Shown here piece by piece: positions 5,696-16,696 of a DNA stretch of 64,000 bases. The notes below the pieces were generated by a model. The model was given only the letters and a program-made list of their open reading frames with translations, was not told where the DNA came from and made no database searches. The first letter of the stretch is position 1, and every line of letters starts with the position of its first letter. The position numbers and the translations under genes are program-made. This stretch comes from Eledone cirrhosa (Eukaryota), in contig OZ024744.1 of assembly GCA_964016885.1 (NCBI GenBank), forward strand, positions 114,824,001-114,888,000, in the 5' to 3' direction.

Positions 5696-5760
5696 ATTTT
5701 ATCTGATGAGGACGAACTGTTAAACTTAATTCAGTACCTCTGAAATATGTATAATAAAAT
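5696..5760 (+). ncRNA. Minimal type I hammerhead ribozyme motif (HHR-1)
   Basis: Stem I ATTTTAT/ATAAAAT; CTGATGA at 5703; stem II GGA-C-GAACTG/CAGTAC-C-TCT; GAAA at 5742; 2-bp stem III with loop ATGT; AUA cleavage triplet, predicted cut after 5753. Confidence 0.7.
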
Positions 5761-5984
5761 ATAATTGATCACAAGAATATCTATTTTGTTAATATTTGGA
5801 ATTAATACATACACACACACACACACACACACACACACACACACACACACACACACACACACACACACACACACACACACACACACACACACACATATAT
5901 ATATATATATATATATATATATATATATATATATATATATATATATATATATATATATACATATATACATATATATACATATAC

Positions 5985-7670
5985 ATACATACATACACAA
6001 AATAAAAATAAAGGGAAGGAAGGGGTATTCAAATAGTAGGGCATACGACAAATAAAAAATAAAGGTATAAATGTTTATAGCTGATTAAGAGCACTCAACA
6101 GATCCTGGAGCAAATAATCAATAAAAGTAAGCATTAAAAAACTCTGTATGTAATTATGCATATACATACAAAACCATACATACACATACACAACCAACTA
6201 CAAACAAATATATATACATATACTTATATATATATATATATATATATATGCAAAAGTTCTATTTAAAATTGTTGGGATACAACAAGTAAATATTTTATAA
6301 CTGATATAAAGTACTCGACAAGTTTTTTCCAAAAATAATGGTTGCATCTAATAGGGTACGTCAAAATTATTTATAAAACTGTTTATATATTGTATTTTGT
6401 CTGATGAAGGCATACCATATTTTAATTTGGTATCCCTGAAATATGTATAATGAAATAAATATGGTTTTATAAATATAGTTTCCATTTATTTAATATCGTA
6501 TATATATATATATATATATATATATATACATACACACACATATATATATATGTATATATATACACACACACTAATATACACACACACTAATATACACACA
6601 CACAAAGTACAAAGGGTTACAACACCACATAAATAAAAATACACACACACACACACACACATATATATATATATATATATATATTTATATACATACGCAT
6701 ACACATATATATAAAAATCTATACAGACATATACACACACATATATATATATATATATATATATATATATATATATATATACACACACTTATATACACAT
6801 ATACACGACAACATACATACACGTAAAATTAATATCTAAAAATAAAAAGGGGGTGGGTATGTAAAGAGTAAGGTAGAGAGTAGGTGGGAATAAGGAAAAT
6901 AAATAACAAGAAAAAGTTAAAAAATAAGAGGAGATAAGGGAGAAAGAGAAAATAAGGGTACAAAAAGTGAGTTCAGAGAGTAATAAAAGTCGTAGTAGAT
7001 GTAAGGCGTAAAGAGCAAAGAAGAAGTTCAAGGTGGTTAAGTCATCGTAGCAAAGAAGTTCAAGGTGGTTGAGTCATCGTAGGAATGTCAATCCAGTTAC
7101 AGAGCAGATGTGATTTCAGGTGAGGACAACATCTGAAGATCTCGGTCTTGGAGTTAAGGCAAGTTGAAGTGGTATACCAGGATAAAAATCTTCATTTAGT
7201 CCAGAATTAGCCGTCGAAACGGCTTGAGCTCAGCCGTCGTGGTCCTACTCGTTCCTATTACCCACTCTACTACCCTAAGTATTGAGTACTTTGGTGCGTT
7301 ATGGTCCACCTGGTTCCTTACCACATTTCCTTCGTTATATATATATATATATATATATATATATATATATATATATATATATATATATATATATGTGTGT
7401 GTATATATATGTATATATATATATATGTATATATATTTGTATGTAGTTGGTTGTGTGTGTGTGTGTGTGTGTGTGTATGTATGGTTTTGTATGTATATGC
7501 ATAATTACATAGTTTTTTAATGCTTACTTTTATTGATTATTTGCTCCAGGAACTGTTGAGTGCTCTTAATCAGCTATAAACATTTATACCTTTATTTTTT
7601 ATTTGTCGTATGCCCTACTATTTGAATACCCCTTCCTTCCCTTTATTTTTATTTTGTGTATGTATGTATA
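5985..7670. repeat. Dispersed inverted repeat, ~220-bp arms (5985-6215 and 7435-7670)
   Basis: AAAGGGAAGGAAGGGGTATTCAAATAGTAGGGCATACGAC... at ~6010 occurs as its reverse complement at ~7605-7645, and the match extends over the arms. Confidence 0.85.
6393..6457 (+). ncRNA. Minimal type I hammerhead ribozyme motif (HHR-2)
   Basis: Stem I TATTTTGT/ATGAAATA; CTGATGA at 6401; stem II AGG-C-ATACCA/TGGTAT-C-CCT; GAAATATGTATA; predicted cut after 6449. Confidence 0.75.
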
Positions 7671-7780
7671 TGTATATATATATAAAGAGTTAAACAAGAT
7701 TCAATGAGTACATCAAAGAATGAGTTTTACTACCTTGATTAAATCTTAACCTTTTAACATCTCAGGGTATGTCATGTATC

Positions 7781-7843
7781 ATTATATTTTGTCTGATGAG
7801 AACGTACTGTTGTACCTCTGAAATATGTATAATAAAATGTAAT
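7781..7843 (+). ncRNA. Minimal type I hammerhead ribozyme motif (HHR-3)
   Basis: 12-bp stem I ATTATATTTTGT/ATAAAATGTAAT; CTGATGA at 7793; stem II GAA-C-GTAC/GTAC-C-TCT with one mismatch; GAAATATGTATA; predicted cut after 7831. Confidence 0.7.
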
Positions 7844-8107
7844 TGATCAAAAGAACATCTATTTTATTAATATTTGTATTTATATATATATATATATATA
7901 TATATATATATATATATATATACACAATATATTAACAAATGGAAACTATATTTATAAAACCATATAGTTTCCATTTGTTAATATATTGTATTTTTACTTC
8001 AATAAATTGTTGAGTGCTTTATATCAGTTATAAAAATATTTACTTGTTGAATCCCAACAAATTAAATATAACTTCTACATATATATATATATATATATAT
8101 ATATATA

Positions 8108-9305
8108 TATTGACCAGTTAATTTTATTGTTCATTTTTTGTCGATTCTATTAAATGATGAATAGCCCCTGTTTATTTTAACATGTCTATTGAGCACTCTT
8201 ATTCGATATGTGTTTTTTGCCACACTTTTCCGAATATTTTTTTGCGGATATAAAGGTTATCTCCCTTGCTGAAATCCATGTGCGTATTTTTAGCATGGGT
8301 CTTGTCTTTCTATCCATTCGGACGAAGCTCGTTGATAAAGTAACTCCAGTCCCCCGGCATCTGTAAGTCTTATATTTTTATATGAGCTGATAGATGACGG
8401 TTTAAGGATTTACAGAAACCCAAGAAGCTAGATATTCCATCTCTCTAGTGGGTCCGGGTATGCATTTTACATTCATTTCATTTATTGATTTATTGATAAT
8501 TTATCTGAGTGTCCCGAATCTTCCATATCGAACTTATCGGTTATTTGGTTGATTGTAGACATATTCTACGTGTGACGGTATTTAACGATAGTTATAGCTC
8601 TAATTTATTTGAATTATAGAGCCCTCTGCCGCTCATCTCGAATTTTGTTTATCGTGAACTCGTGCGCCGATTTTTCGATACTCGATTATTCTACTATAGT
8701 TAGCTCTAGACTTAGCTATTGACCAGTTAATTTTATTGTTCATTTTTTGTCGATTCTATTAAATGATGAATAGCCCCTGTTTATTTTAACATGTCTATTG
8801 AGCACTCTTATTCGATATGTGTTTTTTGCCACACTTTTCCGAATATTTTTTTGCGGATATAAAGGTTATCTCCCTTGCTGAAATCCATGTGCGTATTTTT
8901 AGCATGGGTCTTGTCTTTCTATCCATTCGGACGAAGCTCGTTGATAAAGTAACTCCAGTCCCCCGGCATCTGTAAGTCTTATATTTTTATATGAGCTGAT
9001 AGATGACGGTTTAAGGATTTACAGAAACCCAAGAAGCTAGATATTCCATCTCTCTAGTGGGTCCGGGTATGCATTTTACATTCATTTCATTTATTGATTT
9101 ATTGATAATTTATCTGAGTGTCCCGAATCTTCCATATCGAACTTATCGGTTATTTGGTTGATTGTAGACATATTCTACGTGTGACGGTATTTAACGATAG
9201 TTATAGCTCTAATTTATTTGAATTATAGAGCCCTCTGCCGCTCATCTCGAATTTTGTTTATCGTGAACTCGTGCGCCGATTTTTCGATACTCGATTATTC
9301 TACTA
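8108..9305. repeat. 609-bp tandem repeat (~1.97 units) flanked by (TA)n; diverged inverted copy at 15467-15880
   Basis: GACCAGTTAATTTTATTG starts at 8112 and 8721 (period 609). The two units look identical by eye. Confidence 0.9.
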
Positions 9306-9390
9306 TATATATATATATATATATATATATATATATATATATATATATATATATATATATATATATATATATATATATATATATATATAT

Positions 9391-15135: not shown

Positions 15136-15236
15136 GGAGGACATGATATGAAGGTTAAAAAACACTTGTGGATAGTTCAGTTTTAAATCAACTGAACTAT
15201 CCACAAGTGTTTTTTAACCTTCATATCATGTCCTCC

Positions 15237-15307
15237 TGTTTTATCTGATGAAAACACAAATATTATTGCATGATGATATTTGTTTTTGAAATGCGCATAA
15301 TAAAATA
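15237..15307 (+). ncRNA. Minimal type I hammerhead ribozyme motif (HHR-6, divergent family)
   Basis: Stem I TGTTTTAT/ATAAAATA; CTGATGA at 15245; long stem II AAA-C-ACAAATATTATT/GATGATATTTGT-T-TTT; GAA followed by palindromic ATGCGCAT and A; predicted cut after 15299. Confidence 0.8.
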
Positions 15308-15976
15308 CATGGAACTCTTTTAACCATCTTTTGTTCTTATATATTATGTATACTCCAGTCCTACAAACTGTAGAGTGCTTCTTATCCGATATCTGCATTG
15401 CTTTATTGTACTACAATAAAACTCACCTCCTATATATATATATATATATATATATACATATATATATAGTAGAATAATCGAGTATCGAAAAATCGGCGCA
15501 CGAGTTCACGATAAACAAAATTCGACATGAGTGGCAGAGGGCTCAATAATTCAGAGAAATCAGAGCTATAACTATCGTTAAAATACCAACACACATAGAT
15601 TATGTCTAAAATCAACCATACGACCGAAAAATTACGATCAGGAAGATTCGGGTCACTCAGATAAAATATCAATAAATCAATAAATCATGTGAATGTAAAA
15701 AGCTTACCCGGACCCACTAGAAAGATGGTAAATCTAGCTTCTTGGGTTTCTGTAAATCCTTAAACCGCCCACTATCAGCCCACATAAAAATATATAAGAC
15801 TTCTAGAGAGCGGCGGACCGGAAATACTTTATCAACGAGCTTTGTCCAGACGAATAAAAAAGCCAACCCTAGCTGAAAACGCACACACACACACACACAC
15901 ACATATATATATATATATATATATATATATATATATATATAAAGAGAGAGAGAGAGAGAGCGATACGAATAATAAT

Positions 15977-16143
15977 TGTTTCTACTTTAGGCACAAGGCC
16001 AGCAATTGGCCAGTACATTACTGGTACTTTATTTTATCGAACCCGTAAGGATGAAAGGCAAAGTTAACCTCGGTGGGATTTGAACTCAGACCATAAAGCG
16101 CCGTAACTCTTTGCTGCATAGCATGGCGTCTGACCCTCTACCG
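15977..16143 (-). mobile_element. tRNA-derived SINE, slightly 5'-truncated
   Basis: Reverse complement of the SINE body, with CGAATAATAAT on both sides as a probable TSD. Confidence 0.85.
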
Positions 16144-16310
16144 AATAATAATAAACTTGAACTCATCTCAGGGAAAAGCGGACGTAAAATGATGGATATA
16201 TATATATATATATATATATATATATATATATATATATATATATATATATATATATATATATTTATTGTATAGAAGGAGCTTCTACAGGACTAGTACTGTT
16301 TCATTCAGAT

Positions 16311-16564
16311 GTATTGAGTACCTTACTTACTGTGGTTATCCCCGACTCCACCCGGGACCTACATATATATATATATATATATATATATATATATATATAT
16401 ATATATATATATATATATATATATATATATATATATATATATATATATATATATATATATATATATATATATATATATATATATATATATATATATATAT
16501 ATATATATATACGTTATTCCGGGTTGAATCGGAGGTAACCACAGTAAGTAAGGTACTCAATACA
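16311..16564. repeat. ~45-bp inverted repeats flanking a ~150-bp (TA)n tract
   Basis: GTATTGAGTACCTTACTTACTGTGGTTA...CCCGG / CCGGG...TAACCACAGTAAGTAAGGTACTCAATAC. Confidence 0.85.
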
Positions 16565-16627
16565 TTGCAGAGTATATATATATTATTCAAAATATTAATA
16601 AATGAAAAATATTCTCATAACCAAAAT

Positions 16628-16696
16628 ATATATTTTATTATACATATTTCAAAGGTACAATGGTGTTTCAGTACGTTTTCATCAGATAAAATATAT
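16628..16696 (-). ncRNA. Minimal type I hammerhead ribozyme motif (HHR-8)
   Basis: Minus strand reads ATATATTTTAT CTGATGA AAA-C-GTAC...GTAC-C-TTT GAAATATGTATA ATAAAATATAT, with a perfect 11-bp stem I. Confidence 0.78.

Follow-up and report, generated by a model that had tools for sequence, protein, structure and literature searches.

A 64,000-nt stretch of the Eledone cirrhosa genome (assembly GCA_964016885.1, contig OZ024744.1, positions 114,824,001 to 114,888,000 of the forward strand; hereafter the window) carries eight hammerhead ribozyme motifs, which are almost certainly terminal pseudo-long terminal repeat (pseudo-LTR) parts of Penelope-like elements (PLEs) that bear an open reading frame (ORF). 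The copies in the window are short, 5'-truncated pseudo-LTR ends inserted in (TA)n. Taken as a whole, the best explanation is probably that these pseudo-LTR hammerheads derive from twin-primed cDNAs made on an uncleaved and probably capped RNA. Hammerheads of PLE pseudo-LTRs, including those of the Hydra clade, have already been published, and the ribozymes as such are ordinary; what appears to be new is a set of mechanistic footprints, namely the pairing of arms by end type and a pile-up of 5' ends with an untemplated G.

Hammerhead motifs and copy number

The pattern CTGATGA-N10-40-GAAA occurs eight times in the window, as compared with 1.29 +/- 1.24 in shuffled sequences, none of which (0/100) reaches eight. 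The cores start at 5703, 6401, 7793, 13359, and 15245 on the plus strand and at 13236, 15127, and 16685 on the minus strand. An initial annotation, made from the letters of this DNA, had described eight type I hammerheads with six distinct sequences, AUA cleavage sites, and a list of cut positions, and a position-by-position parse reproduced all of these (Table 1). In each motif CUGANGA, GAAA, and an NUH triplet follow in order, stem I has 8 bp, A15.1-U16.1 is present, and the triplet is AUA. Loop III is either ATATGTAT or ATGCGCAT, and stem III can be drawn in two ways, as 2 bp plus 4 nt or as 3 bp plus 2 nt. The described architecture of stem II, with 3 bp, a C.C mismatch (C.U at 15245), and then a helix, was borne out. 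Its pairing is not unbroken, as copy 5703 has A.A and copy 7793 has A.C.

One of the checks suggested was a covariance-type model. Trained on 16 copies, of which six lie in the window, it recovers the same eight motifs, and no other site scores above 27 bits over the window plus the preceding 10 kb. The supposed family of eight is far larger: its copies exceed 45,000, and the window motifs represent five of its subfamilies. Two patterns gave 26,214 and 19,624 exact matches in the 3.0-Gb genome (45,838 together), and the reversed controls gave 0.

The parent element

Many hammerhead pairs in the genome point outwards, 3.5-4.5 kb apart, with ORFs between them. For all families of the window (A, B, D, E, and F), a same-strand ORF with reverse transcriptase (RT) and a GIY-YIG-type nuclease lies 1-1.9 kb upstream of the hammerhead elsewhere in the genome, which upholds the Penelope link proposed earlier. 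Among loci selected for a longer 3' untranslated region (UTR), the link was counted in 11/25 for D and 6/25 for A; it was seen in 1/30 loci for F, and was also found for B and E. An ORF 2.7 kb upstream of an F hammerhead at locus L109 was assigned to another element and not used as an F link. No PLE ORF lies within the window itself.

Among ten loci chosen for long frames, nine have an ORF of 708-816 aa with DKT, YRDD, CxCx5C, VVY..YVG, CxxC..E, and CxH motifs. An N-terminal RWR is present in the ORF-bearing loci and has been lost in two. Loci L099 and L100 encode 742 aa without interruption from Met. Proteins of families A, E, and F are 43-50% identical to that of B. In a protein search, 82 of 98,538 candidates were scored, all of them 88-100% identical and many without a stop. 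A structural model of the ORF based on 76 homologues reached a predicted local distance difference test (pLDDT) score of 87.8, and its best fold matches were telomerase RTs (E 3e-9, template modelling score 0.35); a single-sequence fold with pLDDT 35 was discarded. Atlas neighbours carry GIY-YIG, DUF8422, and HTH_animal domains.

These features correspond to the Hydra clade of PLEs with a C-terminal endonuclease (EN+), for which a (TA)n target, inverted 5'-truncated copies, and a one-sided tail have been described (Craig et al. 2021, PMC8557442). A single RT-linker-EN ORF of about 740 aa is shared, in which a telomerase-like RT is followed by the C-terminal GIY-YIG-type nuclease. DKT, the CxCX5C linker, and CxxC and CxH around a conserved E and N are shared as well, CCHH is absent, and the motifs agree by eye with the published alignment. 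The published RWK is represented by RWR, a conservative change. Further likenesses are the hammerhead near the 3' end, where several published members likewise close stem II with A-U or U.U, insertion in (TA)n, direct or inverted pseudo-LTRs, and the one-sided tail, which has been described qualitatively in print. The present elements differ in their 3' UTR of 1-1.9 kb, their length of about 4 kb (published members are mostly <3 kb), their more than 45,000 copies, and a tail of 83-96 nt instead of the 30-40 nt described for PLEs (PMC8557442).

Three points weigh against this assignment. Pfam gave no match in three to six pieces of PLE-like ORF, no solved structure was matched by sequence with a 76-row profile, and the suggested placement in the clade is by motifs, not by a tree with published elements.

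Several other sequences collected from the genome touch on this group. Distant Hydra-type ORFs at L109:2300-5600, L032:5012-5734, and L117:2750-3200 are 33-40% identical to family B, so that the genome appears to hold several more Hydra-clade families. Further hammerhead-like families with other stem II and loop III sequences occur at L138:1029-1322, L123:5080-5178, L128:3252-3300, L136:125-207, and L137:2490-2573, here too partly as mirror pairs, and one of these families has a different perfect palindrome. Residues 483-514 and 588-597 of the L099 ORF are asparagine-rich inserts of low confidence, reminiscent of the N-rich inserts of rotifer Penelopes (PMC3846280). A recent repeat annotation of an octopus genome reports active Penelope families, and its accessible part does not mention ribozymes (PMC13282606).

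Conservation of the hammerhead fold

In an alignment of 16 copies from different subfamilies, 95.3% of cells are paired, and stems II and III contain 29 cells with double changes, as compared with 10.8 after shuffling (0/500 shuffles). Compensatory change in stem II, as claimed initially, is thereby confirmed. Three stems surround the core, which is open at stem I. Among 66 distinct copies, 16/19 pairs show double changes in a model-fitted alignment that leans towards the model. In 209 related motifs, which are copies from the collected loci and not independent events, position 4 of stem II is unpaired in 204, positions 1-3 and 5-7 pair in 192-201, and A-U or G.U stands at the base of stem II in 193. 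Between families the hammerhead retains 58-74% identity, against shuffle-level identity of its flanks, a contrast that points to selection on the fold.

Other results are less favourable. Variation in stem I consists of wobble changes only. The number of pairs with double changes (7 vs 5.3) is not above the shuffles (55/500), and the count of pair types (16 vs 18.3) shows no gain over them. Folding z-scores are weak, from +0.06 to -1.34 with a single value of -2.95, and the monomer fold never closes stem III. An Rfam scan, which had been recommended, gave no hammerhead family in the whole window (0/89 matches at E<=1) or in two single copies (E<=10); the matches in the window were TA-driven microRNA and snoRNA noise. 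Rfam models cover canonical forms, and the miss means "not in Rfam" and not "not a hammerhead". The self-pairing energy of loop III is -2.2 or -10.5 kcal/mol, and this self-pairing, together with the unclosed stem III of the monomer, fits the published dimer model (PMC4209133).

The motifs can be compared with two published sets. Minimal metazoan PLE hammerheads (Cervera and de la Pena 2014, PMC4209133) are likewise type I with a long stem II and a tiny palindromic stem III, and they occur as thousands of dispersed single copies, grouped into sequence families with compensatory changes, and as opposite-strand pairs 100-700 bp apart. In that set the G10.1-C11.1 pair is conserved and position 9 is followed by a bulge; the present motifs instead have A-U or G.U, a C.Y mismatch inside stem II, and a stem I of 8 bp. 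The published Hydra table lists 27 rows with A-U, U.U, and G-C closings (PMC8557442 File S2). Of the two features that had been called unusual, the A-U closing pair is thus already on record, and the fixed C.Y mismatch stands, since in the accessible table, including Hydra-1_oBim, neither a stem II of 3 bp plus C.Y nor the present loop III sequences appear. As to whether the motifs are catalogued, the clade and its hammerheads are, and these sequences are absent from that table (PMC8557442). The hammerhead variants of Lunse et al. 2017, as cited in a review, may overlap with them.

A fold that no longer cleaves, and that is kept as a protein-binding or packaging signal, would touch the ribozyme step only, so that the other parts of the best explanation could stand alongside it. 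The A-U or G.U closing pair in 193/209 motifs, the mismatch three pairs from the core, the weak folding, and the lack of a copy pile-up at the cut would all suit such a signal, and ribozyme mutants of an anole element still insert in vitro (PMC11167929). Nevertheless, the core, the AUH triplet, and the self-complementary loop III have been kept across families whose proteins are 43-50% identical, and changes in loop III preserve the palindrome. We regard a non-cleaving fold as unlikely; the hammerhead probably does cleave under some condition.

Two 3' end sites and the pairing of arms

The ends of the copies adjoin (TA)n, in agreement with the proposed preference for this target. There are two fixed 3' end sites, one 40-52 nt past the predicted cut and one 83-96 nt further, each followed by (TA)n. 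In tandem copies the 3'-end sequence does not stop there but crosses a TA-like stretch at each of the sites and reaches the ATG of the ORF about 50 nt later, which indicates that reverse transcription would start inside the 5' UTR.

Head-to-head insertions combine the two sites. Among 75 insertions in which both arms were found by the same anchor, 65 consist of a short arm and a tailed arm (p 2.6e-11 against 0.5). Seven rows were scored as short-short, five of which show a tail with a changed marker; the two truly short-short insertions, together with three tail-tail ones, are exceptions that count against a strict rule. An independent method gave agreement in 85/92 classifiable arms, with many insertions counted twice. 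The arms are truncated independently of each other, often with spacer bases between them. Twin priming, in which the two arms are separate cDNAs, is likely on the evidence of these genomic ends.

The closest experimental system is PAc (Poseidon) of Anolis (Frangieh et al. 2024, PMC11167929), for which two internal RT start sites that define the tail, cutting and extension of both target strands, an uncleaved RNA template, and a protein-assisted ribozyme have been shown in vitro. The same features are deduced here from genome footprints. In PAc the ribozyme overlaps the ORF start and priming occurs without homology, whereas here the start sites fall within the 5' UTR, where TA-like sequence matches the target. 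Neither strict pairing of one tailed with one short arm nor 5' run-off with a G was described for PAc (PMC11167929). In the accessible Penelope and hammerhead literature, no description was found of the 5' pile-up, the extra G, or the strict arm pairing.

5' ends, untemplated G, and rival origins

The 5' ends were sampled with an anchor placed downstream of the cut, which avoids selecting for truncation. The first 100 genome matches were taken and rows with the same flanks were collapsed, which left 86 distinct copies of family E and 95 of B/D. In family E, one base 69 nt upstream of the core is the starting point of 18/86 copies, 32 copies start no more than 8 nt from it, and 28 extend at least 200 nt. 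An untemplated G precedes 12 of the 18 pile-up copies, at a position that is C in the element (p 2e-4). For B/D the boundary lies 88 nt upstream of the core, and a G is present in 6/10 copies starting at the boundary motif, in rows read by eye. An extra G is a mark of a reverse-transcribed cap. Run-off of the cDNA at a capped start is therefore the reading that we favour with some reserve, as it relies on copy ends in the genome; in Drosophila Penelope, promoters have been documented in the pseudo-LTR (PMC2377424).

A capped start is less easily reconciled with other counts. The B/D boundary is blurred, with 13/95 copies beginning at 136-138 nt from the cut. A motif-based recount of the G was weaker, at 13/35 in family E (p 0.014) and 7/23 in B/D (p 0.16, with some templated copies misfiled), and copies of A and F were too few. 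A TATA-like box at a fitting distance was found in A and F only.

Copy ends were also considered as a footprint of cleavage in vivo, and this was rejected because only 2/86 (E) and 3/95 (B/D) fall within 3 nt of the cut. Short copies span an intact cut site, and their template was thus uncut. Three of 28 short B/D copies do end <=3 nt from the cut, where about 1.5 are expected, and a minor class of cleaved template may exist among the B/D copies.

The initial annotation had placed the modules in a non-autonomous PLE or retrozyme family, that is, an independent retrozyme- or SINE-like (short interspersed element) lineage whose short, perhaps circular ribozyme RNAs are copied in trans. This assignment was not sustained and is now very improbable. 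The modules are indeed non-coding, 150-400 nt long, and share a sharp 5' end in a window without a PLE ORF, and in a weak form of this idea a promoter in the 3' pseudo-LTR could yield a short RNA mobilised in trans. Non-LTR retrozymes resemble them in being non-coding units of 150-400 nt with a type I hammerhead and kinship to PLE pseudo-LTRs, but are head-to-tail tandem repeats giving circular RNA (PMC7229834; Li et al. 2026, preprint 10.64898/2026.07.22.740005), whereas the present copies are solo or head-to-head ends of ORF-bearing elements. The window has no head-to-tail tandem units of 170-400 nt with a hammerhead each. Among 100 listed genome matches, all 16 pairs <=1 kb apart are head-to-head in a count by hand (16/16), with no head-to-tail pair within that distance. 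The two arms of one insertion also differ in both ends. In a tree of family E, none of 25 short copies is closer to its own kind than to long copies, and the short/long label changes 15 times, as compared with 16.5 after shuffling, so that short copies do not form a separate lineage; the tree contains no non-coding lineage of its own apart from ORF-bearing elements. Copy lengths form a continuum up to 4.2 kb, and each family ends an ORF-bearing element.

For the inverted junctions of rotifer Penelopes, self-priming has been proposed (PMC3846280), and the mirror structures here could likewise come from fold-back of one cDNA on an antisense template, with the 5' pile-up as an RT pause and not a cap. 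Among 35 family E boundary copies, eight are perfect-palindrome overlaps of two full arms at the start sequence, which is in favour of a fold-back. Untemplated bases can also be added without a cap. With self-priming, however, the 3' end of the first arm should recur in the second, yet 65/75 pairs differ in their ends, and independent truncation with spacer bases between the arms is not expected either. We consider fold-back a remote prospect, and prefer two separately primed cDNAs.

Proposed mechanism

In the mechanism that we propose, the enzyme of the element would cut both strands of a TA tract. Its RNA would have a capped start, 69 nt upstream of the core in E and 88 nt upstream in B/D. 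Of the two TA-like sites in the 5' UTR, each side of the (TA)n double-strand break would use one for priming. Many cDNAs would reach the cap and run off there, at a length of about 165-275 nt, and two of them would be joined head to head. For longer copies, priming at the 3' repeat or a template jump could be responsible, and read-through RNA, a circle, or a strand transfer may be involved. The ribozyme, which is probably slow, may need a same-sense partner, via the palindromic loop III, or the protein of the element, and it would trim the precursor RNA and not the template. A dimer needs two same-sense copies, as in an RNA of pseudo-LTR, ORF, and pseudo-LTR. Mirror copies are antisense to each other on one transcript and are thus not dimer partners; they would form one long hairpin that hides the ribozyme.

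A broader reading is possible, although we hold it with more doubt than confidence. A dimeric enzyme would cut both strands of the TA tract, with each half priming at its own fixed site on one capped, uncleaved RNA, and the resulting cDNAs, comparable to retroviral strong-stop DNA, would be joined head to head or jump to the 3' repeat and yield full copies. The hammerhead, weakened on purpose through its A-U/G.U closing pair and the conserved C.Y mismatch, would act as a gated switch setting the 3' end of the transcript and not as a circularising ribozyme. If this is true, the self-priming model of inverted repeats would give way to it, the regeneration of pseudo-LTRs would be explained, and the genome would be a base-resolution record of Penelope integration. 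In the accessible parts of the literature, the origin of the tandem and inverted structures of Penelope and the role of the hammerhead are called open (PMC8557442, PMC2377424, PMC11167929).

With uninterrupted ORFs and young copies in the tens of thousands, the family is a test bed for the start base, the two priming sites, the use of one of each per insertion, and the uncleaved template. Moreover, thousands of near-perfect hairpins of 250-400 bp would form double-stranded RNA if transcribed.

Insertions and other features of the window

The insertions are listed in Table 1. The modules are 90-98% identical to element ends elsewhere in the genome, and that of family B at 6250-6498 is 95% identical to the ends of ORF-bearing copies. 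With respect to the pairing of one short and one tailed arm, five of the seven modules fit by script or alignment, 5648-5805 fits by eye, and the family F module has no partner arm. The family E arms at 15033-15432 meet over a 3-nt microhomology.

Table 1 PLE insertions and hammerhead motifs in the window
Feature	Position	Strand	Remarks
Family A insertion between TA tracts	5648..5805		tail-end stub and 5'-truncated sense arm
Family A stub, 13 nt	5648-5660	-	by eye; missed by script
Family A sense arm, 5'-truncated	5658-5805	+	stops at near 3' site
Hammerhead, family A	5695..5761	+	stem II broken once by A.A; predicted cut after 5753
Family B two-armed insertion	6250..6498		tail-only arm 6250-6326 (-), sense arm 6327-6498
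Hammerhead, family B	6393..6457	+	predicted cut after 6449
Family A short-loop subfamily, two-armed insertion	7683..7882		tail piece 7683-7728 (-), sense arm 7728-7882
Hammerhead, family A short-loop subfamily	7785..7839	+	A.C at stem II pair 2; predicted cut after 7831
Family B/D two-armed insertion without ribozyme	7924..8079		both arms truncated downstream of hammerhead
Family D head-to-head insertion	13050..13455		tailed arm 13050 to ~13307 (-), short arm ~13308-13455 (+)
Hammerhead, family D mirror copy	13180..13244	-	predicted cut 13188
Hammerhead, family D	13351..13415	+	predicted cut after 13407
Family E head-to-head insertion	15033..15432		short arm 15033-15189 (-), tailed arm 15187-15432 (+)
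Hammerhead, family E mirror copy	15065..15135	-	predicted cut 15073
Hammerhead, family E	15237..15307	+	palindromic loop III, C.U mismatch; predicted cut after 15299
Family F arm, 5'-truncated	16583..16697	-	stops at near 3' site
Hammerhead, family F	16631..16693	-	predicted cut 16639
28 nt like 5' boundary of a family E subfamily	16698..16725	-	by-eye comparison

The module at 7924..8079 is absent from the initial annotation. The 28 nt at 16698-16725 are fused in sense upstream of the F arm, and a template switch between families is possible.

Other repeats also occur in the window. A 22-kb array of a 51-bp unit (96% matches) extends over 42293-64000; its minus strand would encode a 17-residue Thr/Ala/Met-rich repeat, mucin-like if coding. 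A rearranged RTE-type long interspersed element (LINE) at 9391-11920, with RVT_1 in a 472-aa frame (-) and a piece of AP-endonuclease (+), is unrelated to the hammerhead modules. A direct duplication of 609 bp lies between TA tracts at 8112-9300, and a copy related to it is found in inverted orientation at 15470-15880. Further modules of hairpin or two-armed form, lacking a hammerhead core, stand in TA tracts at 13610-13724, 13901-14019, and 16270-16560, and a module of the 13820-14020 type recurs at 7200-7335 and at many loci. These coreless modules are possibly the ends of other Penelope-type families.

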